Under the pieces are notes generated by a model. It was given only the letters and a program-made list of their open reading frames with translations, was not told the origin of the DNA and did not search any database. A stretch of DNA of 64,000 nucleotides from Dehalococcoidia bacterium (GTDB lineage Bacteria; Chloroflexota; Dehalococcoidia; GIF9; UBA5629): positions 4,961-68,960 of the forward strand of contig DAOUFT010000073.1 of the NCBI GenBank assembly GCA_034429855.1, read 5' to 3'. How positions within the stretch are numbered: the first letter of the stretch is position 1; each line of letters begins with the position of its first letter. This document shows positions 3,942-52,417 of this stretch, piece by piece. Made by a program: the position numbers and the translations under genes.

Positions 3942-3942
3942 C

Positions 3943-8620: not shown

Positions 8621-8641
8621 CGGTATATTCCTTCTGTGTGG

Positions 8642-9274: not shown

Positions 9275-9278
9275 CGTT

Positions 9279-12542: not shown

Positions 12543-13192
12543 TGATGCGCCGCTCTGCTGCCAGCATTCTTTTGATGTTCGTCAATCATGGAAATAAGTG
12601 TCATATCTATCAAGTGGTTGGCAAGTGGTATGGCCTCTGCAATGCGGCCCCCACGTGCCTCCCGTTTTCCTGCCAGGCCGGCTGCCGACTGCATGATCAG
12701 CTCCCGGTGCATGAGAAAGGCTTCCGTAGCTTCGGTCAAAGGCATTCCCATCTCGGCCAGCAGAATGCCGAAACATCTGCCCGTGTCGCGGGCAGCGGAG
12801 AGCGATTCCTCCCTTCTGGCTGGCTCGCTGATGTATCTGGCCGTCAGGTGAAGCAAGCGGCGTCCCAGCTCTGCCAACCGTAGCTGGTGCTCTTTACATG
12901 GCTTGACCGCTTGTGGAGACCTGTCGAAAAAGCCGCGCGCTATCTCCCGGTGTCGGGGTGTGGTATCTTCCAGCTCGCTGACCAGGTCTTTGATGCCCAG
13001 CACCTTCTGCCCGGAACGTGTGAGCTTCTTCAGGTCGGATTTAAAATAACGCCTGTGTCCTCCCGGGGTTACGAATGCGCTGAGCTTGCCCTCGTCCGGC
13101 CACTGTCGCAGTGTTGCTTCGTTGACCCCCAGTATCTGGCTGGCTTCTCTTATGCTGATTACGTCTGTTCTTTTCACCGCAAAGCCCCTCAT
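12539..13192 (-). CDS. MerR/excisionase-type HTH transcriptional regulator with a C-terminal domain of unknown function; first gene of the ahb/hem operon
   Basis: N-terminal VISIREASQILGVNEATLRQWPDEGKLSAFVTPGGHRRYF is a MerR-family HTH. The C-terminal ~140 aa has no recognised motif. Confidence 0.55.
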   Translation of the reverse strand: MRGFAVKRTDVISIREASQILGVNEATLRQWPDEGKLSAFVTPGGHRRYFKSDLKKLTRSGQKVLGIKDLVSELEDTTPRHREIARGFFDRSPQAVKPCKEHQLRLAELGRRLLHLTARYISEPARREESLSAARDTGRCFGILLAEMGMPLTEATEAFLMHRELIMQSAAGLAGKREARGGRIAEAIPLANHLIDMTLISMIDEHQKNAGSRAAHQ

Positions 13193-14588: not shown

Positions 14589-14623
14589 CCTGCTCCTCCT
14601 TTTTCGTCTTTCCAGAACAGAAG

Positions 14624-15547: not shown

Positions 15548-15578
15548 GTGATTATGAACCTCCTTTGTGTGAAAATTG

Positions 15579-17571: not shown

Positions 17572-17601
17572 GACTTGTCGGCTTCTCCTGATCAGGCCGG
17601 G

Positions 17602-19044
17602 CTACAGCAGGCTGGCAGGCCTGATCTTTTTTCTCGCTTTCTGGATGTAGTAAAGTGCCAGTCCCACGATGATGGCCAGAACAAACAGTATGATAGGCCA
17701 GTAGACCTTCTGCATCAGCATGAACACTATGAGCAGCAGCATGAATATTACATTCAGCACGGCGGCGGTTATGGCTGTGAAGGATACCACGCCCGGCTTG
17801 AATTTATATTGCGACAATTTAACCTCGTTGGGGTGGGTCTTGTGCAGTCTTGATACCGCTATCAACACCAGCGTCACCATCCACAGCATACCGAAGTTGA
17901 GCATGGCTCCGTAGATGGCCAGGCTCTCGCCTGCCAGCAGCAGTGTGATCACGGTCAGCGCCCAGGGCAGAGTGAGCCCCCAGTGTGGCGTGCCCCAGCG
18001 CTTGTTTATATCGGCCAGAAACTTGGGGAAAAAGCCGTCTTGGGCATAGACCATGACATAACGGCCGGAGACGGTCATCAGCGCGTGCAGAGTGGAAATG
18101 CAGGCCATTACCGCGCCGCCGATGATGAAGAAGAAGAACCAGAAGGAATTGGCGCCGAATATCTGCCTGCTGACAGCGCCCAGGTCCTTAGATGCCGCAA
18201 GCTGGTCCCAGGGCATGACACCTACCGCCACAAGCTCTACAAAGAACGTGAGCAGAAACACTCCCACCATCGCCAGGAACAGTCCGCGGGGTATGGTGAC
18301 CTTGGCATTCTTCACCTCCTCGCCCAGCTCGATGCCGAAGCGTCCGCCGGCAATCAGCGTGTAGCAGATAGCCGCTGCCGCGATCAATCCCACCGTCACG
18401 CCCAGTGTGGGAGGCATGCCGGGAAACTTCAGATTGCCTGTGAACATGGTCGAGAAGTTGGACCACTCGATCTGCGGAAAACCGCCGAAAATGAAAGCTA
18501 ACAGTGCGACAATCAACAGAAATACCATGCCGAACTGCACCCAGGCGGTGGGCTTGATACCCACAATGTTGATGATATAGAAGATGGTAATCGAGATTAT
18601 CGCGATCAGCACCACCCATGAGATGCCCAGCCCCGGCACCATCGCAGGGGCGTCCGGGAACAGCATCATGAGGAAACGCGCATTCGTGATGGCGAAGAGG
18701 GGAAGGCCGCCCAGCGGCACGGCTACCAGCAGCACTATAACAGTCGCTACTGCCAGTGGATACGAGGCTAGCTTGCTGTACTGGTAGCTGGCTGCCGACT
18801 TGGGAGCGATGGAGGTAATCAGCATGTAAGGAATTATGGCTAAAAATACGGGCAGTGAGCAGATTAACTGCGCAATGATAATTGAGGGGCCGGTCAGACC
18901 GGCGGCGACCGTGGTCAGCGTGAACAGCGAGCCGCCGATATTCAGGCCTATCATGAGGAAAACCAGCAGTAGTAAAGTTAGCTCTTTTCTGAGTATGCCC
19001 TGGCCTTGCTGTGTCTCTTCTTTCATCCCTGTCAACTCCTTCAT
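17602..19044 (-). CDS. APC-superfamily amino acid permease
   Basis: 480 aa with about 12 TM segments. APC-type architecture. Confidence 0.75.
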   Translation of the reverse strand: MKELTGMKEETQQGQGILRKELTLLLLVFLMIGLNIGGSLFTLTTVAAGLTGPSIIIAQLICSLPVFLAIIPYMLITSIAPKSAASYQYSKLASYPLAVATVIVLLVAVPLGGLPLFAITNARFLMMLFPDAPAMVPGLGISWVVLIAIISITIFYIINIVGIKPTAWVQFGMVFLLIVALLAFIFGGFPQIEWSNFSTMFTGNLKFPGMPPTLGVTVGLIAAAAICYTLIAGGRFGIELGEEVKNAKVTIPRGLFLAMVGVFLLTFFVELVAVGVMPWDQLAASKDLGAVSRQIFGANSFWFFFFIIGGAVMACISTLHALMTVSGRYVMVYAQDGFFPKFLADINKRWGTPHWGLTLPWALTVITLLLAGESLAIYGAMLNFGMLWMVTLVLIAVSRLHKTHPNEVKLSQYKFKPGVVSFTAITAAVLNVIFMLLLIVFMLMQKVYWPIILFVLAIIVGLALYYIQKARKKIRPASLL

Positions 19045-19138
19045 CTTATTTGTAGCTGCTGAGAAAAGGGTGGGTCAAGGCATTATACAATTTCCATTTC
19101 CCCTGTCAATATACCTGTATGAACAACATTTATATCTA

Positions 19139-20488
19139 TTACCTGTAAATGCCGAATGCTGTAACAAAAGCCTGCCGGCTATTCTGTATGTCCTTTTCGG
19201 TCATGACGCCCGACATATAGACATGTCCGGGCAGCACCACTGCGCCCGGATTGCCCAGCAGCAGCCCCAGCCTGATCATCAGGTCGAACTCGTAGACCTC
19301 CAGCACCTGGCTCATGTCGAACTTTCCGTTCAGGCCGAAGTGCACGATGCTGTAGATGGCGTGGGCCGAGACGTCCATCTTCAGCTCGGCTGCCACCTCG
19401 TTGATCAGTTTGGCCAGGTCTGCGGCCCGCTCGACGGAGTTCTGAATGTAGTTGCCTTTCTCAAGCTCCTCAATGAAGGCGATGCCGGCCGCCATGGCCA
19501 GCGGGTGTGCGCAGAACGAGCCCATGGGGAAGAGCGGTCCGAAATGCTCGGCCCTGGGATCCAGCGCGCCGACCACCGACATCACGTCCTCGCGTCCTCC
19601 CACCGCTCCGATGGGTATGCCCCCGCCGACCGGTTTGCCCAGGCAGGTAAGGTCCGGCTTTATGCCCAGCAATTGCTGTACCCCGCCGATGGCCACCCTG
19701 AAACCGGTGGCCACCTCATCGAATACCAGCAGGACGTTATATTTGGTCGTCAGTTCGCGCAGCTGCTGCTGGAAGCCCTCGGCAAGCGGTGTGCCACCGG
19801 ACGAAGCGCCCAACGGCTCCAGCACGATGGCTGCTACCTGCTCCTTGTTGTCCTTAAGTGCCTTCTCCACGATGCCTATATCGTTGGGAGGCAGGTTGAT
19901 CAGGTTGTCCCAGTGGTTGTTGGGTATGCCCGCCGTGAAGAGTGTGCCTGAGCCGGCCGCCAAAGCATCGTAAGACAATACACCGTTCCAGCCGTGATGA
20001 TGGCCGGCGAACTTTATGATCTTGTTTTTACCCGTGAAGGCCCTGGCGATCTGACAGACAAGCTCGGTGGCCTCATTGCCTGAATTAACGATTTTTATTT
20101 TCTGGATGGACGGGTAATGCTGCATCACCTTCTGCGCCCACCTGGTGGCCAGCTCCTCGCACATCTCCAGGTGGAAACCGTATTTGTCCAGCGTCTTATC
20201 GATGGCCTTGCGAATGGCGGGCGCCTTGTGCCCTATATAGGAGATGCCTTGGTCGATGAACATATCTATATACTCGTTTCCGTCCACGTCGTAAAGGCGG
20301 GAACCTTTGGCGCTGTCTATGAAGAGAGGATACGGCCTGTGCCAGATCATGTAGGCGGGTGCGCCCATGGGCACTATGAACCTGCGGGATTCCTCGTTGA
20401 GTTTCTTGGATTTAGGGGTTTTCTTCTCGTATCTGGCTATGACTGCCTTGTATTTCTCATCACTCAGTTTCGGTATGCTCATTTTCAC
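19139..20488 (-). CDS. Class-III PLP aminotransferase / aminomutase, HemL (GSA aminomutase)-like paralog
   Basis: SGNEATELVCQIARAFTGKNKIIKF ... FDEVATGFRVAIGGVQQLLGIKPDLTCLGKPVGGGIPIGAVGGREDVM. This is closely parallel to the hemL product in this window. Confidence 0.8.
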   Translation of the reverse strand: MKMSIPKLSDEKYKAVIARYEKKTPKSKKLNEESRRFIVPMGAPAYMIWHRPYPLFIDSAKGSRLYDVDGNEYIDMFIDQGISYIGHKAPAIRKAIDKTLDKYGFHLEMCEELATRWAQKVMQHYPSIQKIKIVNSGNEATELVCQIARAFTGKNKIIKFAGHHHGWNGVLSYDALAAGSGTLFTAGIPNNHWDNLINLPPNDIGIVEKALKDNKEQVAAIVLEPLGASSGGTPLAEGFQQQLRELTTKYNVLLVFDEVATGFRVAIGGVQQLLGIKPDLTCLGKPVGGGIPIGAVGGREDVMSVVGALDPRAEHFGPLFPMGSFCAHPLAMAAGIAFIEELEKGNYIQNSVERAADLAKLINEVAAELKMDVSAHAIYSIVHFGLNGKFDMSQVLEVYEFDLMIRLGLLLGNPGAVVLPGHVYMSGVMTEKDIQNSRQAFVTAFGIYR

Positions 20489-20666
20489 CCCCCTTTGTCC
20501 GTCCGGCCCAAGATGGCCCTGCAGGTGGCGGACTCCGTCATTTTAATCCACGGTGTTACAAAAAACAACTTTTTTGTATAAATTGTTTAGCTCCAGCTAC
20601 GGCGTCAGTATTGTGCTGCTCCTTCGGCTGAGTTATACTTACCATAACGCGCGATGTGAGAAGTTG

Positions 20667-21452
20667 ATGGAAATAGGAGATCAAAAGAAGAAGTCCACCG
20701 GGCACAAGTTCAGCCATCGCTGGTTGATGAATCTGTTAAAACAGGTCAGGTCGGGTGATCTATCTCTACAGGATGCCGTCGGGCAGCTCAGCGTCCTGCC
20801 TTACGAAGATATGATGCATGCCAAGCTCGATCACCACCGCAGTTTGCGCACTGGCTTTCCCGAGGTAGTCTACGGGCCGGGCAAGACGCGCAGACAGGTG
20901 GTGGATATAACAGAGAGATTGGCGGCACGTTCGGACAGGGTGCTCATCACACGAGTAGAGGACGATGTGTTCAGGGCTGTTAAAAGAAAATTGCCGGATG
21001 CCGTATATAACACGCAAGCCCGGGCCATAATCGTAGACCGCACGGAGAAAAAGACGGGTAAACCGGGTATTACCATCGTAACAGGAGGAACAGCGGATAT
21101 ACCGGTAGCCGAGGAAGCTGCTGTAACAGCGGAAATGATGGGCAACAAAGTTGAGCGTATCTTTGATGTAGGAGTGGCCGGCATCCATCGTCTTTTCGAT
21201 CATTTGGAGCAGATCAGAAGCGCCAGGGTGATCGTGGCGGTGGCTGGTATGGATGGAGTGCTACCGGCAGTGCTGGGCGGGCTGGTGACCTGTCCCGTCA
21301 TCGCGGTGCCCACCAGCGTCGGCTACGGGGCCAATTTTGAAGGCATCGCACCCCTACTGACCATGCTCAACAGCTGCGCGCCGGGTGTTGCAGTGGTGAA
21401 TATCGACGGGGGGTTCAACGCCGGCTATCTTGCCGGACTGATTAACAGATGA
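20667..21452 (+). CDS. larB: LarB, nickel-pincer nucleotide biosynthesis carboxylase/hydrolase (PurE-like)
   Basis: PurE-like GITIVTGGTADIPVAEEA ... VIVAVAGMDGVLPAVLGGLVTCPVIAVPTSVGYG. The ATG was confirmed at 20667. The track ORF is extended upstream. Confidence 0.8.
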   Translation: MEIGDQKKKSTGHKFSHRWLMNLLKQVRSGDLSLQDAVGQLSVLPYEDMMHAKLDHHRSLRTGFPEVVYGPGKTRRQVVDITERLAARSDRVLITRVEDDVFRAVKRKLPDAVYNTQARAIIVDRTEKKTGKPGITIVTGGTADIPVAEEAAVTAEMMGNKVERIFDVGVAGIHRLFDHLEQIRSARVIVAVAGMDGVLPAVLGGLVTCPVIAVPTSVGYGANFEGIAPLLTMLNSCAPGVAVVNIDGGFNAGYLAGLINR

Positions 21453-22282
21453 AGTCACGGAAATTGAGTGTTGAAAGCAAAACACCGGATAAAGTCGCTC
21501 ACCTGGAAAGCATTATAGATAGAATGGGCTCCGCTATGGTAGCGTATTCAGGAGGGGTGGACAGCACGTTTTTATCCGTCACTGCTTTCGAAATTCTTAA
21601 GGACAAGGTGCATATCGTTCTGGCAAAATCCCCACTGATGGAGCTGGAAGAATTCAACGCGGCAAAAAATCTGGCAACTTCGCTCAAATTGAATCTAACT
21701 GTGATAGAGTTCAACCAGCTCGATATTCCGGACTTCGCGGTCAACAACAAGGACAGCTGCTATCACTGCAAGTTGAATATGCTTGGTATATTGAATGAGA
21801 CTGCCCGGGCAAAGCATATAAGATACGTGTGCGATGGGACCAACTACGATGATCTCAGCGATTTTCGACCGGGCCTGGTTGCCATAGCTGAGCTCGGTGT
21901 ACGCAGCCCGCTGGCGGAATCTTTTCTGACCAAGCGGGAGATAAGGTCTCTTGCCAGAAAAAAAGGACTTTCGAACTGGCAGAAACCGGCTAATCCCTGC
22001 CTGGCCACCAGGATACCTCATCGCACACCTATCACGCATGATATCCTCCGTCAGGTGTCGGCAGGCGAGTCTTTTATCAGAGGACTTGGGATCGAGCATG
22101 TCAGGCTGAGGCATCACAGTAACATGGCCAGGATCGAGGTGGACCAGAAAGGATTGGCCAGGCTTATAAAAAAGGACAACCGTCAGGCTGTCGTCGACAC
22201 GCTCAGGAAACTCGGCTATAAGCATGTAACGCTCGACCTGGCGGGCTATCAGATGGGAAGCATGAACCGGCAGACCTCATGA
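21449..22282 (+). CDS. larE: LarE, ATP-dependent sacrificial sulfur transferase (PP-loop ATP pyrophosphatase)
   Basis: PP-loop VAYSGGVDSTFL. ATGA overlap with larB. Confidence 0.8.
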   Translation: MKSRKLSVESKTPDKVAHLESIIDRMGSAMVAYSGGVDSTFLSVTAFEILKDKVHIVLAKSPLMELEEFNAAKNLATSLKLNLTVIEFNQLDIPDFAVNNKDSCYHCKLNMLGILNETARAKHIRYVCDGTNYDDLSDFRPGLVAIAELGVRSPLAESFLTKREIRSLARKKGLSNWQKPANPCLATRIPHRTPITHDILRQVSAGESFIRGLGIEHVRLRHHSNMARIEVDQKGLARLIKKDNRQAVVDTLRKLGYKHVTLDLAGYQMGSMNRQTS

Positions 22283-23493
22283 TTAAATCAGGTAATTATA
22301 TGGGTAGACCAGCCTACTTCGACCTTTACGCCGGATGCAGTGGCGATATGATACTGGGTGCATTGCTGGACGCCGGCCTGTCCAATGTAGAACTGGAGAA
22401 AGAACTCAGTAAGCTTTCTCTGGACGGTTACAGGATTAAGTCCGAGAAGGTCAAGAGAGGTGCGCTTCGTGCAACCCGGGCACGGGTGATACTGGACGAT
22501 AGTGTAAAACAACCCGAACGATGTTATAGCGATATAGTGGATTTAATCGTGGGCAGCAGGCTTGGTGATGGGCTAAAAAAGAAGGCGCTGGCCATTTTTC
22601 GCAACCTGGGCGAGGTGGAGGCCAAAATGCACGGAGTCAAGCTGGATAAGGTGCATTTCCATGAGATCGGAGCGGTTGATTCTATAATTGACATTGTGGG
22701 CGTTGTCATCGGTTTGAACCTGCTGGGTATAGAGCGTTGCTATGCATCACCTTTTCCACTAACGGAGGGAAACGTCGAGTGCCGTCACGGCGCCCTGCCG
22801 TTGCCAGCGCCGGCTACCGTAGAGCTCATTGCTCGTGTTAGGGCGCCCGTAGTTAAACCGCGCCATGCTGCTATGCAGGGAAAGGAGCTGGTCACACCGA
22901 CCGGTGCTGCAATTCTAACTACGCTGGCTGAATTCAGCCGGCCTTTTTTAAACTTGGAGAAGGTGGGCTACGGAGCTGGCAGCAAAAATGCCGCTGAATA
23001 TCCCAACGTCATGTGTCTGTGGATAGGTTCATCATTCGGCCATGATGTCAGTGAGGACATGGTGCTACTGGAGACGAACATAGATGATATGAACCCGCAG
23101 ATTTACGACTATGTTATGGAGAGGCTGTTCGCACAGGGTGCGCTGGACGTATGGTTCACGCACATACAGATGAAGAAGAACCGTCCTGCCGTGATGCTGA
23201 GCGTGCTCTCTCCTGCTTATGCGGAGACGGAGATGGCGGAGACCGTAATGCGGGAGACCTCCACGCTGGGTATAAGGGTCCGGCCGGTATACAGACATAT
23301 CGCAGGCCGTGATATAGTCGAATTCAAATCAAGTTACGGCATGGTCAGGGTAAAGGTAAAGCGATTCGCGGAAGAGATAGTCAGTATTGCCCCGGAATAT
23401 GACGAATGCAGGAAGATCGCAGCTGAGCACGGTGTTCCCTTGAGGGAAGTTTACCGGACTGTTGAGGCTGAGGCGCGCAAGCTGATTAAATAG
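22279..23493 (+). CDS. larC: LarC, nickel insertase for the NPN cofactor (DUF111)
   Basis: YFDLYAGCSGDMILGALLDAG ... VHFHEIGAVDSIIDIVG. ATGA overlap with larE. Confidence 0.8.
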   Translation: MIKSGNYMGRPAYFDLYAGCSGDMILGALLDAGLSNVELEKELSKLSLDGYRIKSEKVKRGALRATRARVILDDSVKQPERCYSDIVDLIVGSRLGDGLKKKALAIFRNLGEVEAKMHGVKLDKVHFHEIGAVDSIIDIVGVVIGLNLLGIERCYASPFPLTEGNVECRHGALPLPAPATVELIARVRAPVVKPRHAAMQGKELVTPTGAAILTTLAEFSRPFLNLEKVGYGAGSKNAAEYPNVMCLWIGSSFGHDVSEDMVLLETNIDDMNPQIYDYVMERLFAQGALDVWFTHIQMKKNRPAVMLSVLSPAYAETEMAETVMRETSTLGIRVRPVYRHIAGRDIVEFKSSYGMVRVKVKRFAEEIVSIAPEYDECRKIAAEHGVPLREVYRTVEAEARKLIK

Positions 23494-23497
23494 CAGC

Positions 23498-26400
23498 TTA
23501 CCATGGATCGATAAACGTGCGTCCGGATGCCTGCGGAATTTTTTTCTGAACCGAGTCAAGGCTGCGCATGATCCAGCGGCGTGTCTCGGCCGGATCGATC
23601 ACGGCATCGATTTCCATGTAGGATGCCATATTCAAGCCCTTGCCCATGGCGTAGGCCTGCTCGACGAAAAATTTGTAGGTCGCCTCTCGCTCAGCAGGGT
23701 CCTTTATTGCTTCGAGCTCTTTTTTAAAGCCGTGTTTGACTGCTCCTTCCAGACCCATGCCCCCGAACTCTCCGGTCGGCCACGCAATTGTAAAAAATGA
23801 ATCATGAAAGCTGCCCGCCGCCATTGCCATGGCGCCCAAACCGTATCCCTTGCGGAGAACGATGGTGAAGTATGGGACTGTCATATGAGATCCGACTACG
23901 AACATGCGACAGACATGTCGCACCTGCGCTCGTTCCTCAATCTCAGGCCCGACCATGAATCCCGGTGTATCGCATAGTGATAGTACGGGAAGGCGATGCA
24001 CATCGCACAGCTGAAGAAAGCGTGCTGCCTTATCGGCGTCGTCTGCCTCTATGGCTCCTCCCATATGTCTGGGATCATTGGCGATCAGGCCGAACGGCCT
24101 GCCCTCGATACGCACCAGTGCTGTAATCATACCGGTTCCGAAACGCGGCCTCATCTCCAGCACGGACCCTGTATCCGCCAAACCTTCTATCACCTTCCTG
24201 ACATCATATACCCTCAGCCTGTTCTCAGGTATCAGCCAGCGCAGTTTGCGCTGGTCGGCGGATTTCCAGGAGGCGATCGGTCCCTGGAAATATGACAGGT
24301 ATTTTCTGGCAACCGATACTGCCTCAGCCTCATTGGCGACCTCTATGTCCACCACGCCGTTACGAGTTTGAACATCGATGGGGCCGATATCGTCGACTTT
24401 AACAACCCCCAGCCCTCCTCCTTCGATCATGGCAGGGCCTCCCATGCCGATATTGGATCCTCGGGTGGCGATAATAACATCACAGCAGCCCAGCAGGGAT
24501 GCATTGCCGGCGAAGCAGGCGCCCTCCACTATACCGATGAGGGGCACCTTCCCGCTCAAAGCCGCAAAACGGCTGAAGGTTGTGAGATCAAGCCCGGCCA
24601 CCACGTTGGCATCGGTGTCGCCCGGACGGCCGCCACCCCCCTCGGCAAATAAAACGATTGGGAGATGCCATCGATCGGCTATGTGCAGCATCCGATCCAT
24701 CTTCTTGTGGTTGAAAAGACCCTGTGTGCCGGCCAGTACGGTGAAATCGTAGGCCAGTACCATGCAGCGTGACCTGGCTTCGTCGAATAGATTGCGGTTT
24801 ACGGTGCCGATTCCCGTGATAAGACCGTCGGCGGGCGTTTTCCTGATAAGCTCGTCCAGCGGACGCCGGCCGCGCTGGGCAGCCACGATCAGAGCACCGT
24901 ACTCGATGAAGCTGCCGGGATCGCACAGGTCATTCACATTCTCGCGCGCCGTGCGCTGGTTCTTCCTGCGCCTCTTGGCAACAGCTTCGGGACGGCGCTC
25001 ATCCAGTGTGAAAGAATGCCTTTCTATCACCTCGGCAAGATCGGGACGGATAACGTCAAGGTCGGGTTCGCTTTCAGTGGTCTTGATATCGGCGTTGACC
25101 TCGGCTTCCTCCAGGAAAAGCAGGGGCGATCCGGCCTTCACGCTTTCATTCAGTGAAACGCTGATCGCGCGCACATATCCGCTGCAAACCGCCGTAATGA
25201 CATGTTCCATCTTCATGGATTCCAGTACGACTAATTTCTGGCCGGCTGTTACAGCATCTCCCTCGATGACCTCGATATCCACTACGCACCCTTGCATGGG
25301 CGCTTTCAGTGGTATGGTTCCTGGAGGCGCCGGGTGCTGCTCAAGCTCGGCTTGAGCTGACCGTACAGACCGGTCGCTGGAGAAAAAACGCTCTTGCCAT
25401 TTATCCTGCATCAGTGCCAGAGCATTGGCATTGTCTTCAATGAAACGCGTATGGATATCGTTATTTTTCACTTCTTGCCTGGATAACAGGTTTATCAGGA
25501 ATGGTATATTCGTTTCTACGCCCTCTATGCGGAACTCCTGCAGTGTTCGCTGCATTCGTACAACCGCATCCTGATATTTATCTGAACGAGAGGTGATAAT
25601 CAATTTAGCCAGAAGTGAATCGAAGGCAGGATTGATGGTATAGCCGCTGTAGCCGCAGCCATCCACCCTTATGCCCGGCCCGGATGGTGCCTCATAGACG
25701 CCGATCCGCCCTGCCGAAGGTATCACATTGCCGGCATGATCTATGCGTTCCAGATTGATGCGCGCCTGCAGAGCGTAAATACGAGGATGAGGCCAGTCAT
25801 GCACAAGGCCAAGTTCCGGCAGTGTCTTACCTGCGGCTATCTCTATCTGTGCCCTGACAAGGTCGATGCCGGTAACTTCTTCCGTTACGGTGTGTTCAAC
25901 CTGCAATCTGGGATTGGTTTCCAGAAAGGCAAATAAAGGTTTGCTGCCGGATGAGCGGTCGACCAGGAATTCGAAGGTGCCGAGGCTGATGTAATTTACG
26001 TGCCTTGCCATCCTCAGAGCTGCCCCTGTTAACTCAGCACGCAGTTTGGTGGAAACCGAAGGGCTCGGTGAGACTTCGATCAGCTTCTGGCCGCGTCTTT
26101 GCAGAGTGCATTCGCGTTCTCCCAGATGAATTACCTGTCTACCGTCGCCGATTACTTGTACCTCGATATGCCTGGCCTGCGGCATATACTGCTCAATATA
26201 TACGTCCCCGCACCCGAAAGCCTTAGCAGCCTCCGACCGGCAAAGGTTATAGGCTTCTTCCAGGTCATCCAGCCTGTAGACGGGACGAATTCCGCGGCCT
26301 CCTCCCCCCTTTACCGCCTTCACGACAACTGCTGCATCGTGACCCAGTGACACAAAAAAATCCAATGCTTCTTTAAGTGTGATCGGTCCCCCGCTGCCGG

Positions 26401-26794
26401 GCATCACTGGAACGCCGCATTCTCCTGCTAAATTGCGCGTGCGTGCCTTGTCCCCGAACAGTTTTAACGTTTTTGCAGACGGCCCGATGAATGCAAGATT
26501 TGCCTGCGCGCAAAGTTGCGCAAAATCGGCGCTCTCGCTTAGAAAACCGTAGCCTGGATGCACGGCATCGCATTCGGCATCAAGTGCCAGGGAAATAATC
26601 TGCTGCTTGTCCAAATAGGCGCCCGCCCCGCTCCCCATTAAAGCATAAGATTTGTCGCCGGCCAGCACGTGCAGTGATTCTGCATCGTCCTGGGAATAAA
26701 TGGTGATTGCCTGGATGCCCAGATCGGATGCCGCCCGTGCTACCCGTATTGCTATCTCACCCCGATTGGCGATAAGTATTCTGTGAAATTTCAT
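23498..26794 (-). CDS. Single-chain multidomain acyl-CoA carboxylase (biotin carboxylase + BCCP + carboxyltransferase in one polypeptide)
   Basis: The N-terminal BC domain has HRILIANRGEIAIRVARAA, the ATP-grasp fold and GYGFLSE. The BCCP domain has VVLESMKMEHVITA, the biotinyl-lysine motif. The C-terminal ~500 aa is an acyl-CoA carboxyltransferase beta-like domain (VLFAEGGGGRPGD ... FAGNASLLGCCD). Length is 1098 aa. Confidence 0.85.
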   Translation of the reverse strand: MKFHRILIANRGEIAIRVARAASDLGIQAITIYSQDDAESLHVLAGDKSYALMGSGAGAYLDKQQIISLALDAECDAVHPGYGFLSESADFAQLCAQANLAFIGPSAKTLKLFGDKARTRNLAGECGVPVMPGSGGPITLKEALDFFVSLGHDAAVVVKAVKGGGGRGIRPVYRLDDLEEAYNLCRSEAAKAFGCGDVYIEQYMPQARHIEVQVIGDGRQVIHLGERECTLQRRGQKLIEVSPSPSVSTKLRAELTGAALRMARHVNYISLGTFEFLVDRSSGSKPLFAFLETNPRLQVEHTVTEEVTGIDLVRAQIEIAAGKTLPELGLVHDWPHPRIYALQARINLERIDHAGNVIPSAGRIGVYEAPSGPGIRVDGCGYSGYTINPAFDSLLAKLIITSRSDKYQDAVVRMQRTLQEFRIEGVETNIPFLINLLSRQEVKNNDIHTRFIEDNANALALMQDKWQERFFSSDRSVRSAQAELEQHPAPPGTIPLKAPMQGCVVDIEVIEGDAVTAGQKLVVLESMKMEHVITAVCSGYVRAISVSLNESVKAGSPLLFLEEAEVNADIKTTESEPDLDVIRPDLAEVIERHSFTLDERRPEAVAKRRRKNQRTARENVNDLCDPGSFIEYGALIVAAQRGRRPLDELIRKTPADGLITGIGTVNRNLFDEARSRCMVLAYDFTVLAGTQGLFNHKKMDRMLHIADRWHLPIVLFAEGGGGRPGDTDANVVAGLDLTTFSRFAALSGKVPLIGIVEGACFAGNASLLGCCDVIIATRGSNIGMGGPAMIEGGGLGVVKVDDIGPIDVQTRNGVVDIEVANEAEAVSVARKYLSYFQGPIASWKSADQRKLRWLIPENRLRVYDVRKVIEGLADTGSVLEMRPRFGTGMITALVRIEGRPFGLIANDPRHMGGAIEADDADKAARFLQLCDVHRLPVLSLCDTPGFMVGPEIEERAQVRHVCRMFVVGSHMTVPYFTIVLRKGYGLGAMAMAAGSFHDSFFTIAWPTGEFGGMGLEGAVKHGFKKELEAIKDPAEREATYKFFVEQAYAMGKGLNMASYMEIDAVIDPAETRRWIMRSLDSVQKKIPQASGRTFIDPW

Positions 26795-26969
26795 TGAAGG
26801 TCCAGTCAGGTATTTCCAACCTCCACTCAGATATAAAAGTATAGCAGAGCTGTCAATGAAAAAGCCGGTAGACTATTTGGTGATGGAGTCGACCTCAATC
26901 GCGGTTATAGGCGTTAGCACCTTCTACCAAGCGACTCTCGCTAAGATTTACCGACACTCGCTGGCCTGT

Positions 26970-28217
26970 CTACAAACTAATGATATCCGACGGATTGTCC
27001 ACGGCAAGAAATAGGAGCAAGTATTCTTTGACATGCCTGGTTATCAGAAAGTTCTGTTTGACGTGCTCATGGCCGTTTCTACCCAGCCAGGCCGCGTATT
27101 CTGGGTTGCTCAGCAGCTGTTTGAGGGCATAGGCTGCTCCATCGACGCTGTGGCAGAGAAGTCCCGTAACCTTGTTCCTCACTTGCTGAGGTATGCCGCC
27201 CACAGCGGTGGCAACCACCGGCTTGCCTTTCCATAAAGCCTCGCTGATGGTCAGGCCGAAGCCCTCCTTGAGCGATTTCTGAAAAACCACCGTGGCGGCC
27301 CTCTGCAAAGCGTTAATCTCTAGGTCACTGCCCGGGGGAATGGCGAGTATTTTTATGTCTTCATCATTGCCGGCACATTCCCTCACATCTTCCAGCACAC
27401 GGGTCGACTCCGGATCATCCGTGGCGGTTCCACCTGCCAGCACCAGCTGGCAATCGATGCCTTTCCTGACCATTCTGAATGCCTGAATGACTCCCACGGG
27501 ATCTTTTAAGTAATCGAACCGTGAGATTTGAACCACCATCGGCTTGCCGTTGTCCAACCCGTATTTATTTAGCACTGACTGTATCTCCGATTGCGACATC
27601 TCACGGTTTTTATTGCTCAGTGGATCTATGGAAGGGGAGATCAGATATTGTTTGACCGGAAGTTGCTGGGAGAATTCGGGGGCGGAGAATACTGTGGCAT
27701 CGTATTCCACAATGTATTTCCTGAGGAAATTCCATACCTCTTTGTCCGGATGCGAAACGTCGACATGGCAGCGCCAGATCCAATCACCGCCGGATGATTT
27801 TTTTCTCTCAATCAGCATAATCGGTTGCGGATCATGAATGTAGAATATGTCGGCATCCAGCGCCATTTTTTCATTGTTCCTGCGGCTTGTCTCGACAAAG
27901 ATGTTCAGGTCATCTTTGGTGAATGTTTCTTCCTGGCCGTGAAGGGCATTGTGAAATTTTTTCGTGACATTGAAAAATTCCTCATCACCCTCAATTACAT
28001 CCCAGGATGCATCGACTCCCAGCTGTTTCAACAGCGGAACCATGCGCGCGAGAATCTCCGCCACCCCGCCGCCCGAGAAGGTGGAATTTACATTTTGCAC
28101 CTTTCTGCCGGCTAAATGAGAACCCAGGATCTTCAGTTCATCGATTATGTTCTTGCCTACAATCGGCTGGTAATCCTCCAGCCTGTTTTTATACCGGTTG
28201 ATTATCGCATTATCCAT
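26970..28217 (-). CDS. GT4 glycosyltransferase, trehalose glycosyltransferring synthase (TreT)-like
   Basis: NVNSTFSGGGVAEILARMVPLL ... FFNVTKKFHNALHG ... IHDPQP ... WIWRCHVD ... SIDPLS ... QISRFD ... EGFGLTISEALWKGKPVV. The context is otsA, otsB and mscS. Confidence 0.6.
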   Translation of the reverse strand: MDNAIINRYKNRLEDYQPIVGKNIIDELKILGSHLAGRKVQNVNSTFSGGGVAEILARMVPLLKQLGVDASWDVIEGDEEFFNVTKKFHNALHGQEETFTKDDLNIFVETSRRNNEKMALDADIFYIHDPQPIMLIERKKSSGGDWIWRCHVDVSHPDKEVWNFLRKYIVEYDATVFSAPEFSQQLPVKQYLISPSIDPLSNKNREMSQSEIQSVLNKYGLDNGKPMVVQISRFDYLKDPVGVIQAFRMVRKGIDCQLVLAGGTATDDPESTRVLEDVRECAGNDEDIKILAIPPGSDLEINALQRAATVVFQKSLKEGFGLTISEALWKGKPVVATAVGGIPQQVRNKVTGLLCHSVDGAAYALKQLLSNPEYAAWLGRNGHEHVKQNFLITRHVKEYLLLFLAVDNPSDIISL

Positions 28218-28225
28218 ATTATTCT

Positions 28226-29599
28226 CTATTTAATTCGTTTCTCGATGAGTTGAATAATTTCTGAACGCAACCCCTCGAGAGTAGTGGTATAAGGCACGAG
28301 GTTGTCGATCTTCTCGGCGAGGTCGGACTCATCAAATGAGTCCTTGATCCATACAGAGAAATCGTTGGAACGCCTTTGCAGCCGCAACCTCGATTCGAAT
28401 ACATGGTAGTAAAGGGAATTTAGGGTGATCTTGCGCAGGACTTCGACGAACTCGCGCAGATCCCATGCATAATAGTTGGTAGGAGCGATGATATTTACCA
28501 CCTTAACGAAATGGAATTCACGTTCAGCCTGGGAAAATCTGATACCCGGATTCTCAATCATATACTGTTCCATAACCGAGATCAGGGCGTTTTTTAAAGA
28601 CGCAAGGCTGGTGAACTCAAAAGTGTCTATATTGGCCAGTTTCTCCGACAGTATGGGATTGTCAAGGGCATCTCCCACCCATAATGCGAAATCGTTTGCA
28701 GGCTCGGGATTGAGATATTGATACTCCTCCAGAAAGTGGTGTGTATGGTAGTACACTATTGAGTCTGGCGCCGCTTTGAGTATGTTCACCAGTGCAATCA
28801 AATTTGTCGCTTTCAGACCGGTGAGTTCCTTCAGATGCAAACGGGTGTAGAAATGAAATGGTTCTGCGGCTTTCTTAAGCGGGCGACCATAATTCACAAT
28901 GGTTTCTCTGACCAGTTTGCTGTTGGGTATAACCATGATAATCTGGTCAGGTGTTCTGACGACAACGTTCCTCCATCCTATGTCGGTAACATAGCCTGCA
29001 TCACCGGAGCCGATTTTTATAAAGTCGCCCTCTTTCACCATGCGGCTGGCAGTGATCTCAAATCCGGAGAATATATTCAGTATCGCATCACGTGAGGCCA
29101 GGATAATCACGAGCATGATAAAGGCAACCAGAAGTATTAAAGGGGTCAGTGGCCAACCCCAATAGTCGAGCAATATCAGTAATCCAACAACAATCAGTGT
29201 CGATCGCAAAGCGATCATAATATATCTGGCCGGCCGCTTGACGTTTTTAAACTCGCTCAGGTAAATGCTTAGCAGTCTTTCACTGAGGATGATGAGCAGC
29301 CAGATAATGGAGATAATGAAAACGCTGGCGATTATTTTGATAATCAGGGTCTTGGTATCTTCCGGTATACTGGAAAATGCGATAGCAACATACAAACCAA
29401 GCAGAATAAACCAGAAGAAGAAAGGCCCGCGTGTAGTCTGAATCAGCACCTCGCGTCCTCCCCATCCTGATTTAGTCAAAGACCTGTTTAGATTGTTATA
29501 AAGCACACGCCTGGCCCAGAGACCTATGATGCAGAATGCCATAAAGATGGCCAGTGGCACCACCACCAGCAACCAATTATGTTGAAACCACTCGATCAT
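28226..29599 (-). CDS. Mechanosensitive ion channel (MscS family) with a large C-terminal cytoplasmic domain
   Basis: N-terminal TM helices, then an MscS-like beta-domain region (GDFIKIGSGDAGYVTDIGWRNVVVRTPDQIIMVIPNSKL). Confidence 0.65.
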   Translation of the reverse strand: MIEWFQHNWLLVVVPLAIFMAFCIIGLWARRVLYNNLNRSLTKSGWGGREVLIQTTRGPFFFWFILLGLYVAIAFSSIPEDTKTLIIKIIASVFIISIIWLLIILSERLLSIYLSEFKNVKRPARYIMIALRSTLIVVGLLILLDYWGWPLTPLILLVAFIMLVIILASRDAILNIFSGFEITASRMVKEGDFIKIGSGDAGYVTDIGWRNVVVRTPDQIIMVIPNSKLVRETIVNYGRPLKKAAEPFHFYTRLHLKELTGLKATNLIALVNILKAAPDSIVYYHTHHFLEEYQYLNPEPANDFALWVGDALDNPILSEKLANIDTFEFTSLASLKNALISVMEQYMIENPGIRFSQAEREFHFVKVVNIIAPTNYYAWDLREFVEVLRKITLNSLYYHVFESRLRLQRRSNDFSVWIKDSFDESDLAEKIDNLVPYTTTLEGLRSEIIQLIEKRIK

Positions 29600-29608
29600 G
29601 TTTTTATC

Positions 29609-30409
29609 CTACGCAATCTTTAGCACTTCAGCAAGTACGCTTCTAACCTCAGCCGTGTCGTTTAAATAGTAGGCGGCGTTTGTTTGCTGACCGGCATTTC
29701 CGATTAGTACCGATACTCCGCCCGCATTATTGATAGTCCGGAACGCATCTTCATCTGTAAGGTCATCTCCAAAATATATGGACAGCGAGGATGCGCGCAC
29801 ATTTTTCGGCAGGAATTTGTCCAGTATCAGCTGTACCGCCTTACCTTTATCCCAAGGAACTGCCGGCCTTACCTCATGCACTTTTTTCCCTGATGAAGTT
29901 TTGATTTTCCCCCTTTTTTTGCCCAGATCAACGGTATTGTCAAAGATCGCTTTAACCTGAGGCAGTTGCTCTGAATCAACTTGTCGATAATGTACGCTCA
30001 GGCTCAGGCCTTTATCCTCCACAACTACTCCTCCTATGCTGGTCAGAGCCCTGGACAAAACACGGCTGACTACGAGCATGAAGGATCGAATTTCATCAGT
30101 TAGAGGATATATATACCGTATTCCCGGCCCCTCGATTTCCAGGCCGTGGTTTCCGGCTAAAATGACGTTGTCTATATCGACCATATTACGTAAATCCGCG
30201 ATTGCGCGGCCGCTGATAATGCCCACCGTCACGCCCTGCTTGCGAGCAAGCTTCTCCAGTAAGTTTTTAGTTTCGTGCGGCAATAGTGCCATCTCGGGCC
30301 GATCCACTATGGGTGTCAGTGTGCCGTCGTAATCGGACAATAACACCTTGCGTTTCGCGGCCTTCAAATTCTTCCAGATACCATTCCAATCGTTAAAAAG
30401 ATATTGCAT
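29609..30409 (-). CDS. otsB: Trehalose-6-phosphate phosphatase (HAD-IIB)
   Basis: LLSDYDGTLTPIV ... HAD motifs ... YFGDDLTDEDAF. Confidence 0.8.
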   Translation of the reverse strand: MQYLFNDWNGIWKNLKAAKRKVLLSDYDGTLTPIVDRPEMALLPHETKNLLEKLARKQGVTVGIISGRAIADLRNMVDIDNVILAGNHGLEIEGPGIRYIYPLTDEIRSFMLVVSRVLSRALTSIGGVVVEDKGLSLSVHYRQVDSEQLPQVKAIFDNTVDLGKKRGKIKTSSGKKVHEVRPAVPWDKGKAVQLILDKFLPKNVRASSLSIYFGDDLTDEDAFRTINNAGGVSVLIGNAGQQTNAAYYLNDTAEVRSVLAEVLKIA

Positions 30410-30424
30410 TTATCCTGATGCTAT

Positions 30425-31915
30425 TCACTTGATCTCTACCATGGCTGCGATGATATCGGCCGCCCATCTATAGACGTTGTATTCACGCACCCTCTCGCGC
30501 AATTTAGTCATCTTCTCACGGCGCTGTTGTGGTTGCATCTCAATCGCGGCTCGAATAGTCTCGGCGATATCCTGTACCGAATAAGGGTTGACCAGCAGCG
30601 CCTCCTCGAGCTCCCTGGCGGCGCCCGTGAACCTGCTCAGTATGAGTACGCCGTCATTGTCCACTCTGCTGGATATATATTCCTTGGCGACCAGGTTCAT
30701 ACCATCGTGCAGGGAACTGACAAGGCAGAAGTGCGCAAGTCGGTTGAAAGCCAGCAGAGTAGCAGGTGATTTGTGCTCTTTTATATATATTATAGGCCTC
30801 CATCCGTCGGTCTCATGCCTGTTGTTGATTTCTTGAACCAGACTGTCGATTTCGGTATTCAGATCCTGATACTTCTTGATCTTGGTACGGCTTGGCTCTC
30901 CAAGCTGGAAAAATACCAGCCTTTTTCTGAATTTGTATTTGGGATATTTTATCAGCAGCTGGTCGATGGCCATCAGCCTTTCAGGTATACCTTTAGTGTA
31001 GTCGATTCTGTCCAGGCCGATACCGATGATCTCGTCGGTTATCCCGTACCTTTGCTTGATGGCCGCCATCTCATTTTCAACTTCAATTGTCCGGCTCCTC
31101 TCGCCGATGGACTCAAAGTCCACGCTGATGGGAAACGGTCTTACATAGGTAGTGTGATTGCCGTGCGAAACGGAAAATTTCTCGTTATCTATCCTGCATT
31201 CCAGCGCACGGTCAACGGTTTCAAGAAAATTGTGCCGGTGATAAGCAATATGGAAACCGAGCAGGTCGTTGCCGAGCAGCCCGTATAGGATCTCGTTTTG
31301 CCAGGGACATACTCTGAACGCCTCACGGTTCGGCCAGGGAATATGCCAGAACTGAGCGCTGATGGTTCTTGGATTCTTTGCTTTGATCAGCCTTGATACA
31401 AGCGTCAGATGATAATCCTGAATGAAAACAAAGGCTTTGCGATGGCCGATCACCTCCAGAACGGCATCGGCAAACTGCCTGTTGACATTTTTATAAGTGT
31501 ACCAGTCCTCTTCGTCGAATTTAGGGCGCTGGAATACTATGTGACAGAGCGGCCACATGGCCTCGTTGGAAAAACCCATATAATATCTATCGAACTCGTC
31601 TTCTGTCAGCCATACGCGTTTAAGTTCGTAGCTGCCGGATCCGGGAGGTACGGATACCATGTTCTTGATGTCAACCACATCCCTATCGGCGCTGCCGCTA
31701 CCATGGGCAACCCAGATTCCTCCGCAGGCCTGCATGACGGGATCGAGCGCAGTGGTGAGACCGCTGGCAGGTACCATGCATTCGATTCTGTCGCCAACGC
31801 GGGTATGAATATAGGGTTCTCTGTTTGAAACAACAACAAATAGGTAATCGGCCAGTTTTTGCTTCACCATGTTTTGTAAATCGATCTGATTGAACATATT
31901 CAATCTCCTCGCCAA
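30425..31915 (-). CDS. otsA: Alpha,alpha-trehalose-phosphate synthase (GT20)
   Basis: LVVVSNREP ... WVAHGSG ... FWHIPWP ... GT20 core. Length is 496 aa. Confidence 0.85.
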   Translation of the reverse strand: MARRLNMFNQIDLQNMVKQKLADYLFVVVSNREPYIHTRVGDRIECMVPASGLTTALDPVMQACGGIWVAHGSGSADRDVVDIKNMVSVPPGSGSYELKRVWLTEDEFDRYYMGFSNEAMWPLCHIVFQRPKFDEEDWYTYKNVNRQFADAVLEVIGHRKAFVFIQDYHLTLVSRLIKAKNPRTISAQFWHIPWPNREAFRVCPWQNEILYGLLGNDLLGFHIAYHRHNFLETVDRALECRIDNEKFSVSHGNHTTYVRPFPISVDFESIGERSRTIEVENEMAAIKQRYGITDEIIGIGLDRIDYTKGIPERLMAIDQLLIKYPKYKFRKRLVFFQLGEPSRTKIKKYQDLNTEIDSLVQEINNRHETDGWRPIIYIKEHKSPATLLAFNRLAHFCLVSSLHDGMNLVAKEYISSRVDNDGVLILSRFTGAARELEEALLVNPYSVQDIAETIRAAIEMQPQQRREKMTKLRERVREYNVYRWAADIIAAMVEIK

Positions 31916-31933
31916 GAAATCTGCGTACGATTA

Positions 31934-32545
31934 CTATCGGCTCTGCTGCGCTATCCCGCATTTGAACCAGATATGATTAAACCGGTTCTCCAGGTTGAAA
32001 GAATAGCCACTCAGAATCCAGGTATTGACCAGAAATTGGAGCAGGGAATAGAAAATGCAAGCTGAAGAAAACGGATCACAGTCGCGTTTAAAATAGCAGG
32101 AGGAGTAGCAGGCCCTGATAAGTTGACCAATATGAGCAACATAATGATTTATAGCCCTGAATGCTTCTTTGTTGAGTTGTTCATCCCCCATGCTGATCAC
32201 CTCAGTGAAGATCTGAAAGAATATACCGCGCCTCCTGACTACGTTGGACAGGTGCCGTTTTACCAATATGTCGACATCGGCCGTCACGGACGCGTCGCGG
32301 CCTTTTTCAGATGACAAATCTGCCAGTAGTACCTTTTCTGCGTAGCCTATCATGTAGCTGTAGATCGCCCTCTTGTTGGTAAAATGCCTGTATATGGCGG
32401 CTTCTGAAAGCCCGATTTCCGATGAGATATTTTTTATGGTTACGTGCTCACCGCCCAGCTTTACTATAAGTTTCGCAGCCGCAACCGCAATCTGCTCCCG
32501 GCGAACTGCCGACCCCCTCCTTTTAACGACCCCCTTCTCAAACAT
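31934..32545 (-). CDS. TetR/AcrR family transcriptional regulator
   Basis: REQIAVAAAKLIVKLGGEHVTIKNISSEIGLSEAAIYRHFTNKRAI. ATG at 32545; the track ORF starts at an upstream GTG. Confidence 0.75.
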   Translation of the reverse strand: MFEKGVVKRRGSAVRREQIAVAAAKLIVKLGGEHVTIKNISSEIGLSEAAIYRHFTNKRAIYSYMIGYAEKVLLADLSSEKGRDASVTADVDILVKRHLSNVVRRRGIFFQIFTEVISMGDEQLNKEAFRAINHYVAHIGQLIRACYSSCYFKRDCDPFSSACIFYSLLQFLVNTWILSGYSFNLENRFNHIWFKCGIAQQSR

Positions 32546-32573
32546 GGTCAGCACACGGCAAATCTTAATTAAT

Positions 32574-46003: not shown

Positions 46004-46008
46004 CTTGC

Positions 46009-52405: not shown

Positions 52406-52417
52406 AAAAGATCAGAT

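Follow-up and report, generated by a model that had tools for sequence, protein, structure and literature searches.

A predicted single-chain acyl-CoA carboxylase of the LCC/YCC family in a Dehalococcoidia-like anaerobe

The window, by which we mean the whole 64-kb stretch of DNA analysed here, contains one long open reading frame at 23498-26794 in which complete biotin carboxylase (BC), biotinyl (BCCP) and acyl-CoA carboxyltransferase (CT) domains had been predicted. The locus raises the question of whether all three parts of an acyl-CoA carboxylase are genuinely carried on one chain and, if so, to which family the enzyme belongs and what it may do in its host.

Integrity of the open reading frame and its domains

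The open reading frame is on the minus strand, and plus-strand translation of the same interval is full of stops. The following features were located.

23498..26794, minus strand: gene for the predicted single-chain BC-BCCP-CT acyl-CoA carboxylase; complete open reading frame of 1098 codons plus stop with an ATG start (open reading frame list and translation)
25424..26794, minus strand: BC domain with an ATP-grasp fold, residues 1-457 (Biotin_carb_N, CPSase_L_D2 and Biotin_carb_C)
25313..25423, minus strand: BC-BCCP linker, residues 458-494, variable in sequence and constant in length among relatives (alignment)
25109..25312, minus strand: biotinyl (BCCP) domain, residues 495-562 (Pfam Biotin_lipoyl)
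25211..25213, minus strand: codon of Lys528 in LESMKMEH, the predicted site of biotinylation, with MKM at residues 527-529
23501..25075, minus strand: CT domain with N and C crotonase-like halves, residues 574-1098

Pfam analysis of the protein revealed five domains, all of them complete.

Residues 3-110: Biotin_carb_N
Residues 115-327: CPSase_L_D2 (ATP-grasp)
Residues 343-453: Biotin_carb_C
Residues 496-559: Biotin_lipoyl, E = 4e-14
Residues 609-1084: Carboxyl_trans (PF01039), covering profile positions 3-480 of 493

Together with the length of 1098 aa and colinearity with the single chain of PDB entry 4RCN, named long-chain acyl-CoA carboxylase (residues 6-1077 against 5-1071, E = 0, 1065 bits), this result bears out the original prediction of one open reading frame with complete BC, biotinyl and CT domains. 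The ESMKME biotinyl motif that had been noted is likewise present, and the LESMKMEH segment containing Lys528 aligns with LEAMKMQH of 4RCN. The BC domain was compared with that of the E. coli enzyme, whose numbering had been checked against known residues. All 16 positions compared were conserved (equivalents of E. coli BC K116, K159, G163-166, E201, H209, K238, E276, E288, N290, R292, Q294, E296 and R338). The CT motifs AEGGGGRPGD and DTPGFMVGP are the same in the carboxylase, 4RCN and 5FIF. As judged by the BC ATP-grasp residues and the biotinyl lysine of the MKM motif, the catalytic apparatus is intact.

The possibility that a frameshift or assembly artefact had joined separate BC-BCCP and CT genes was considered. 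Nothing was found in its favour; the only ground for it is that such enzymes are, as a rule, multi-subunit in bacteria, and its probability is negligible. An identical protein (P0001) is found in separate NCBI and JGI records. More than 100 homologues have a length of 1090-1104 aa, and alignment of nine of them, from independent assemblies and with 63-86% identity, revealed 0-6 indel columns over the full length, both domain junctions included. Because homologues from independent assemblies share both length and colinear domain junctions, and since the protein also follows a crystallised single chain from end to end, an artefact is excluded. Thus, 23498-26794 is a genuine intact fusion of all three acyl-CoA carboxylase parts.

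The end of Biotin_carb_C (residue 453) and the start of Biotin_lipoyl (residue 496) are separated by about 42 residues, and the corresponding spacer of 4RCN is equally short or shorter. On this spacing, the BC-BCCP linker is too short for a BT domain, and BT is absent from the predicted protein. Lack of a BT domain is reportedly a defining trait of the LCC/YCC family (Tran et al. 2015).

Assignment to a known single-chain family

In its architecture, roughly 1100 aa in a single chain arranged as BC, BCCP and CT, the protein matches the LCC/YCC family, and the CT domain gives the same answer. It is 60.5% identical to the CT of 4RCN and 59.7% identical to 5FIF (528 residues), scoring 675-695 bits against these two structures. 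The next-best CT in the PDB, PCC beta subunit 1VRG, scores 238 bits, about one third of that value; no beta subunit exceeds it, the multi-subunit beta subunits in the PDB fall between 190 and 240 bits, and PccB structures score about 190 bits. These scores put the CT domain in the LCC clade and not in the beta clades of PCC, ACC, MCC or GCC. Sequence identity of 50-60% to solved structures settles the predicted fold. The gene product is very probably a functional, biotin-dependent acyl-CoA carboxylase from the single-chain LCC/YCC family (4RCN; 5FIF/5H80). It is an ordinary new member of an already structurally known single-chain bacterial family and not a new kind of enzyme; the enzyme type would not surprise a specialist.

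The carboxylase and 4RCN are of nearly the same length (1098 and 1093 aa) and share the order of BC, short linker, BCCP and CT, the MKM biotinylation motif and a methionine at the position of PccB residue 422. Identity is 42% in the BC plus BCCP part, compared to the 60.5% found for CT. Unlike the carboxylase and a paralogue described below, 4RCN lies outside a 62-member clade that contains both of them, and its host is an aerobic actinobacterium, whereas the host of the carboxylase is a Dehalococcoidia-like, dsrAB-bearing anaerobe. The 4RCN structure was reportedly presented by Tran et al. 2015, Nature 518:120.

The match to 5FIF reaches the very C terminus (...DPW), and the BC domain matches 5H80 with E = 4e-127, while 5FIF differs in having Gln where the carboxylase has Met989. 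Both entries are labelled only "Carboxylase" in the database and presumably represent Deinococcus radiodurans YCC. This enzyme is said to be the subject of Hagmann et al. 2016, Structure, its substrate reportedly having been left unidentified.

Multi-subunit PCC and ACC enzymes (Streptomyces PccB 1XNY, Thermotoga 1VRG, mycobacterial AccA3/AccD4/AccD5) share the three catalytic modules, the chemistry and the CT fold with the carboxylase, which differs from them in holding all modules on one chain without a BT domain; their mechanism is summarised in PMC13012033. The mycobacterial "LCC complex" (AccA3/AccD4/AccD5) has only its name in common with single-chain LCC. Another bacterial carboxylase on a single chain is the eukaryote-like multidomain ACC of Saccharopolyspora erythraea, SACE_4237 (PMC6491548). 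Enzymes of that type are homodimers with a large non-catalytic central region and use short-chain substrates only (PMC6491548), whereas the carboxylase has no such region and belongs with the smaller LCC type (S. erythraea SACE_3154, group III).

Database names point elsewhere, since records of some relatives read "pyruvate carboxylase" or "carbamoyl-phosphate synthase large subunit", and the top NCBIfam match of the carboxylase itself is pyruvate carboxylase model NF009554 (590 bits). This match is limited to the BC part (residues 2-464) and stays well below the cut-off of 965 bits, and the C-terminal half is crotonase-type PF01039 rather than a pyruvate carboxylase CT, so that either identity has practically no chance of being correct. 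Pyruvate carboxylase (NF009554 / TIGR01235) and carbamoyl-phosphate synthase were rejected on domain content and the sub-threshold score. On the carboxylase, every curated NCBIfam model stays short of its whole-protein cut-off. The main value of the assignment is the correction of annotation for relatives that carry these names.

The original prediction held single-chain bacterial versions to be rare. We found at least 120 full-length protein clusters (90% identity) that are 59-100% identical to the carboxylase and full-length matches in at least 80 species-representative genomes, so this view does not stand. Among the matches listed are members of Chloroflexota, Desulfobacterota, Alpha-, Beta- and Gammaproteobacteria, Binatia, Myxococcota, Acidobacteriota, Verrucomicrobiota and Actinomycetota. 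The family had also been called poorly characterised, which holds for its physiological role but not for structure and kinetics, with a holoenzyme crystal structure and kinetic data (4RCN; PMC6491548, PMC4347857) and the domain structures 5FIF and 5H80 at hand. According to PMC4347857 and PMC6491548, 4RCN is a homo-hexameric, domain-swapped holoenzyme; they describe a family member as a homo-hexamer that is active on C2 to C16 substrates, has a Km for palmitoyl-CoA 350-fold below that for acetyl-CoA and has been proposed to serve in the use of carbon and nitrogen sources.

Genomic context and transcription unit

The carboxylase is immediately preceded by trehalose synthesis genes and followed by nickel-pincer cofactor genes, both of which are silent on acyl-CoA metabolism. 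Farther downstream lies a second group of genes.

20553-23493, strand opposite to the carboxylase: larB-larE-larC, nickel-pincer cofactor genes, between the cassette and the carboxylase
13293-20488: BKACE / 3-hydroxyacyl-CoA dehydrogenase cassette (aminotransferase, permease, 3-hydroxyacyl-CoA dehydrogenase-like, ApbA-like reductase, BKACE, MFS)

The carboxylase had been placed next to this cassette. The cassette is indeed in the vicinity, but it is 3 kb off, beyond the three convergent larB-larE-larC genes. It is quite unlikely that the two work together, with the carboxylase acting on an acyl-CoA from the beta-keto-acid cleavage enzyme or on a downstream product. The order carboxylase, larC-larE-larB, aminotransferase, ApbA-like, BKACE, MFS does recur at two loci with 79% identical carboxylases (P0011, P0015), each with a different gene on the upstream side of the carboxylase, and a larC remnant adjoins P0006. 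On the other hand, the cassette is 3 kb off with three other-strand genes in between and is transcribed separately; the common order is found only among close relatives, maybe by simple inheritance, and is absent from relatives with 72% and 69% identity. In distant loci, homologues of the 3-hydroxyacyl-CoA dehydrogenase-like and BKACE genes were found about 7.5-8.4 kb downstream of the carboxylase in 1 of 80 (L053).

The convergent genes lie 4 bp downstream of the carboxylase. On its upstream side a conserved block was noticed.

26826..26856, minus strand: promoter/operator-like block TTGACAGCTCTGCTATACTTTTATATCTGAG, 32-62 nt upstream of the ATG, including TTGACA and an imperfect palindrome

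All four of the loci L083/L084 and L085/L086 have an identical block, from which the copy in the window deviates at 2 of 31 positions. At these loci the upstream gene is different, the carboxylase is only 79-82% identical, and the spacer outside the block is not alignable. An imperfect palindrome, in relatives CTCTGCTATA-N4-TATAGCTGAG, was spotted by eye in the alignment. A simple sigma-70 scan did not call the block, and a consensus promoter and terminator scan of the 175-bp upstream gap gave nothing useful. The leader had no Rfam match, no riboswitch or known RNA being found at E up to 0.1, and an inverted-repeat search of the leader returned none. A Shine-Dalgarno-like GGAGG is more than 20 nt from the ATG. 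With the conserved block upstream and convergent genes downstream, the carboxylase appears to form its own transcription unit. An operon with the upstream trehalose genes is unlikely, since the upstream gene varies in relatives while the promoter-like block directly before the carboxylase is kept.

A single-chain paralogue, 66% identical to the carboxylase, is located 4.7 kb before the window, which brings the genome to two copies. It adjoins a TetR gene and two family-III CoA-transferases.

Possible substrates and physiological role

By analogy with the family, biotin on Lys528 of BCCP would be carboxylated by the N-terminal BC domain with MgATP and bicarbonate. The BCCP domain would then swing on flexible linkers to the C-terminal CT domain, which would pass the carboxyl group on to an acyl-CoA at its alpha-carbon; the product would be malonyl-CoA or an alkylmalonyl-CoA. 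As judged from its homologues, the enzyme is probably a homo-hexamer around a CT core and would accept a range of acyl chain lengths.

The CT position equivalent to Streptomyces PccB residue 422, a known specificity determinant, was mapped through an alignment to 1VRG and PccB coordinates.

23828..23830, minus strand: codon of Met989, equivalent of PccB residue 422 (query 49-287 against PccB 280-516)

The role of PccB Asp422 was reportedly described by Diacovich et al. 2004. The comparison with PCC revealed methionine at this position in the carboxylase, as in 4RCN and the paralogue, while 5FIF has Q; among 199 family sequences, 100 have M here, 85 have Q, 9 have I and 5 have L. Met989, common to the carboxylase and 4RCN, is the sole sequence hint on chain-length preference. 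As both characterised enzymes lie outside the 62-member clade, their chain-length preference would not be confidently transferable. The view that substrate specificity cannot be read from the sequence is upheld.

It is very improbable that the enzyme is a carboxylase dedicated to propionyl-CoA in the methylmalonyl-CoA pathway. Among multi-subunit CTs in the PDB, PCC beta subunits and the 12S transcarboxylase come closest, and according to PMC6491548 family enzymes accept short-chain acyl-CoAs. However, Met989 replaces Asp422 of PccB, the CT is clearly within the LCC/YCC clade and not in that of PCC beta subunits, and no methylmalonyl-CoA mutase or epimerase gene was found near the carboxylase or near the relatives examined.

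Across the 80 loci listed, no neighbour family occurs in more than 15. In 12 of these loci an AMP-binding acyl-CoA ligase is encoded no more than 250 bp from the carboxylase gene, and among the matches listed an enoyl-CoA hydratase is near the carboxylase in the two closest species genomes. One locus, from a Dehalococcoidia MAG, combines TetR, acyl-CoA ligase, carboxylase, enoyl-CoA hydratase and SCP2; in Desulfosporosinus acidiphilus the carboxylase is accompanied by a sigma-54 activator, thiolase, acyl-CoA dehydrogenase and CoA-transferase A/B. The gene context of the family offers only a hint of general acyl-CoA metabolism. As relatives adjoin acyl-CoA synthetases, enoyl-CoA hydratases, acyl-CoA dehydrogenases, thiolases, CoA-transferases and TetR regulators, we tentatively propose, as the most likely function, that the enzyme carboxylates acyl-CoA intermediates during the catabolism or assimilation of organic acids or fatty acids.

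Clearly less likely, the enzyme may be a housekeeping acetyl-CoA carboxylase that provides malonyl-CoA for fatty-acid synthesis, replacing or supplementing AccABCD. The window contains no accA, accB, accC or accD, although 64 kb is a small fraction of a genome, so their absence from it means little. The two single-chain copies and the monocistronic gene with its conserved promoter-like block are compatible with such a function, but no fab genes are nearby, and relatives sit in catabolic acyl-CoA gene sets with TetR, GntR or sigma-54 regulators. Kinetics bear on it in both directions: according to PMC6491548, a family enzyme turns over acetyl-CoA in addition to longer substrates, with a Km far higher for acetyl-CoA than for palmitoyl-CoA.

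Besides the proposed catabolic or assimilatory role, there is a small chance of one of two more specific functions. Two single-chain carboxylases may replace multi-subunit acetyl-/propionyl-CoA carboxylases in sulfite-reducing Dehalococcoidia-like anaerobes, or the carboxylase may be tied to the linked BKACE cassette for amino- or hydroxy-acid degradation, with an unusual CoA ester and the palindromic candidate operator. Either, if true, would be the first defined physiological role for the LCC/YCC family in an anaerobe.

The presence of dsrAB, dsrC and dsrMK in the same window, together with a gene for a glycyl radical enzyme, supports the original prediction that the host is an anaerobe. With two copies of this ATP-consuming type of carboxylase in an energy-limited anaerobe, the enzyme is a reasonable choice for biochemical study. 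The window's DsrB clusters with Dehalococcoidia MAGs.

Domain organization and family of the carboxylase

A single long ORF of 1098 codons, running from ATG to stop, was found at positions 23498-26794, as originally predicted; the prediction had left out its strand, which is minus, and plus-strand translation of the same interval contains stops throughout. Pfam analysis revealed a complete set of biotin carboxylase (BC), biotinyl (BCCP) and acyl-CoA carboxyltransferase (CT) domains in that order, with the biotinyl lysine, residue 528, lying within the expected ESMKME motif.

Pfam domains of the carboxylase (residues)
3-110, Biotin_carb_N
115-327, ATP-grasp domain
343-453, Biotin_carb_C
496-559, Biotin_lipoyl
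609-1084, Carboxyl_trans (profile positions 3-480 of 493)

Comparison with E. coli biotin carboxylase showed conservation of every BC catalytic position checked (numbering of the E. coli sequence matched known residues). Between BC and BCCP, a spacer of about 42 residues leaves too little room for the BT domain that PCC/MCC alpha subunits carry.

A frameshift joining two separate genes had been named as the condition under which the single-chain reading would fail. This was ruled out by three lines of evidence. Residues 6-1077 align in one stretch with residues 5-1071 of 4RCN (E = 0, 1065 bits), named "long-chain acyl-CoA carboxylase" and crystallised as a single chain, with which the protein is thus colinear. 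The identical protein is present in separate NCBI and JGI records. Finally, alignment with nine homologues (63-86% identity, independent assemblies) contains 0-6 indel columns over the full length, and the BC-BCCP linker (about residues 462-490) keeps its length while varying in sequence. All of the 120 best homologues are 1017-1156 aa long with coverage of about 100%.

In the CT half, identity reaches 59.7% with 5FIF and 60.5% with the 4RCN CT; the BC and BCCP part shares 42% identity with 4RCN. When CT was compared with PDB entries, single-chain CTs scored 675-695 bits, and the next best match, a PCC beta subunit, 238 bits. Since its CT is far closer to single-chain CTs than to PCC beta, the carboxylase belongs to the single-chain LCC/YCC clade (the family of 4RCN and of the domain structures 5FIF, CT, and 5H80, BC) and is not a new fusion of ordinary subunits. 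5FIF and 5H80 are Deinococcus radiodurans YCC, an enzyme not known to have an assigned substrate.

In the NCBIfam scan no curated model matched the carboxylase at whole-protein cut-off; the top match, pyruvate carboxylase, covered the BC part only (590 bits versus a cut-off of 965). This accounts for the mixed names of the relatives, which include "pyruvate carboxylase", "carbamoyl-phosphate synthase large subunit" and "carboxyl transferase domain-containing protein". The mycobacterial AccA3/AccD4/AccD5 "LCC complex" has the name alone in common with single-chain LCC.

The genome scan detected matches that cover virtually the entire query, with identities of 53-72%, in at least 80 species-representative genomes; those listed belong to Chloroflexota, Desulfobacterota, Alpha-, Beta- and Gammaproteobacteria, Binatia, Myxococcota, Acidobacteriota, Verrucomicrobiota and Actinomycetota. 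The single-chain LCC/YCC family is therefore not rare in genomes, contrary to the original prediction. The enzyme is of the kind predicted, a single-chain acyl-CoA carboxylase, but its poor characterisation was overstated: the family is already known, structurally solved and widely distributed, and the gene adds one member to it.

Substrate clues and a second carboxylase

According to PMC6491548, single-chain LCC accepts acyl-CoAs from C2 to C16 at comparable kcat, its Km for palmitoyl-CoA being 350-fold below that for acetyl-CoA, and both there and in PMC4347857 it is described as assembling into a homo-hexamer. The 1VRG alignment together with PccB coordinates placed Met989 of the carboxylase at the equivalent of Streptomyces PccB position 422. 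Asp422 of PccB is a known specificity determinant, reportedly from work of Diacovich et al. in 2004. Of 199 family CT domains, 100 have Met at this position, 85 Gln, 9 Ile and 5 Leu; 4RCN has Met and 5FIF Gln. A hydrophobic residue here counts against the reading as a dedicated, PccB-like propionyl-CoA carboxylase; Met989 does not settle chain length. When CT domains were placed in a neighbour-joining tree, the carboxylase fell in a 62-member clade that holds neither characterised enzyme. The comparison of specificity residues, as originally suggested, and the tree bear out the original view that the substrate is not readable from sequence.

The same metagenomic contig encodes a paralogue, P0061, a second single-chain BC-BCCP-CT carboxylase (1099 aa, 66% identical) that belongs to the same clade and also has Met at the PccB-422 position. 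Next to its gene lie a divergently oriented TetR gene and the genes of two family-III CoA-transferases.

Position of the paralogue gene
Locus L002, 10001-13300; JGI contig Ga0255811_11626465, 68114-71413; spans about 4.7-8 kb before the window start, ending about 4.7 kb before it

Upstream block and gene neighbourhoods

Features flanking the carboxylase gene
12539-13192, MerR regulator gene, just beyond the BKACE cassette
13293-20488 (-), BKACE (beta-keto-acid cleavage enzyme) cassette: class-III aminotransferase, amino-acid permease, 3-hydroxyacyl-CoA dehydrogenase-like, ApbA-like reductase, BKACE, MFS transporter
20553-23493 (+), larB, larE, larC, nickel-pincer nucleotide cofactor synthesis; convergent with the carboxylase gene, 4-bp gap
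26826-26856 (-), 31-nt block TTGACA(A/G)CTCTGCTATACTTTTATA(G/T)CTGAG, from spacer alignment with relatives
26970-32554 (-), compatible-solute operon upstream: TetR at the head, otsA, otsB, MscS-DUF5752, treT

The 175-bp spacer upstream of the carboxylase gene gave no consensus promoter or terminator call, Rfam match or exact inverted repeat. The 31-nt block within it is identical in four relative loci, the window copy differing at 2 of 31 positions, and includes an imperfect palindrome as well as the hexamer TTGACA, consistent with a putative promoter on which an operator for a dimeric regulator is superimposed. The block is lacking upstream of P0061. Because this promoter/operator-like block is conserved among loci whose upstream genes and remaining spacer sequence differ, the carboxylase gene is probably transcribed on its own and not as the final gene of the trehalose operon. 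That operon carries two trehalose routes (otsA-otsB and treT) and a mechanosensitive-channel protein fused to DUF5752.

The BKACE cassette had been placed next to the carboxylase gene; it is near but not adjacent, since larB, larE and larC stand between. In combining the dehydrogenase with BKACE it is reminiscent of routes for cleaving carnitine or beta-keto acids. The annotated genes of the window include no larA-type racemase. Two relatives whose carboxylases are 79% identical repeat the order carboxylase, larCEB, aminotransferase, ApbA-like, BKACE, MFS, each with a different gene upstream of the carboxylase; a larC remnant adjoins the carboxylase of the 82% relative, and the order is missing in the relatives at 72% and 69%. 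It could reflect functional linkage or mere inheritance among close relatives.

Among the 80 relatives' loci listed, the commonest neighbour family occurs in at most 15, and in 12 of the loci the carboxylase gene has an AMP-binding acyl-CoA ligase no more than 250 bp away; other recurrent neighbours are acyl-CoA dehydrogenase, SDR and Dpp-type transporters. Enoyl-CoA hydratase adjoins the carboxylase in the two closest species-genome relatives among the matches listed. One Dehalococcoidia MAG locus contains TetR, acyl-CoA ligase, carboxylase, enoyl-CoA hydratase and SCP2; that of Desulfosporosinus acidiphilus, a sigma-54 activator, thiolase, acyl-CoA dehydrogenase, CoA-transferase A/B, carboxylase and PFOR. 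The recurrent neighbours were all classed as acyl-CoA enzymes, which weakly favours a part in the catabolism or assimilation of organic acids or fatty acids over a housekeeping supply of malonyl-CoA.

Anaerobic gene content of the host

Dissimilatory sulfite reductase (dsr) cluster
49878-56813 (-), whole cluster, including a small DsrD-like ORF (-) and a YHS peptide (-)
55644-56813 (-), dsrA
54559-55623 (-), dsrB
52918-54336 (-), CbiA-like amidase
52418-52735 (-), dsrC
51479-52405 (-), dsrM
49878-51482 (-), dsrK

The proposed anaerobic host is supported by these genes together with HdrD-like proteins, a glycyl radical enzyme and alternative haem/sirohaem genes in the window. DsrB belongs to a 90%-identity cluster whose name derives from MAGs of Dehalococcoidia and Chloroflexota, the closest carboxylases among the species-genome matches listed (72%) are from uncultured Chloroflexia and Dehalococcoidia, and Dehalococcoidia with dsrAB are documented (PMC4959651), which lends further support. 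The haem cluster at 2640-12542 (-), for sirohaem synthesis and the alternative haem pathway, fits such a host; it comprises hemL, hemB, cobA-hemD, hemC, hemA, precorrin-2 dehydrogenase-like, NirDL-like and two radical-SAM/SPASM genes. The glycyl radical enzyme is PFL-like (889 aa, 57031-59700, +), with a radical-SAM activase at 60447-61541 (+). Directly downstream of dsrK, a run of genes at 43464-49691 (-) encodes four iron-sulfur proteins with CCG domains (HdrD-like) and an FAD-binding oxidase (44618-46003); this run may serve to feed electrons into sulfite reduction.
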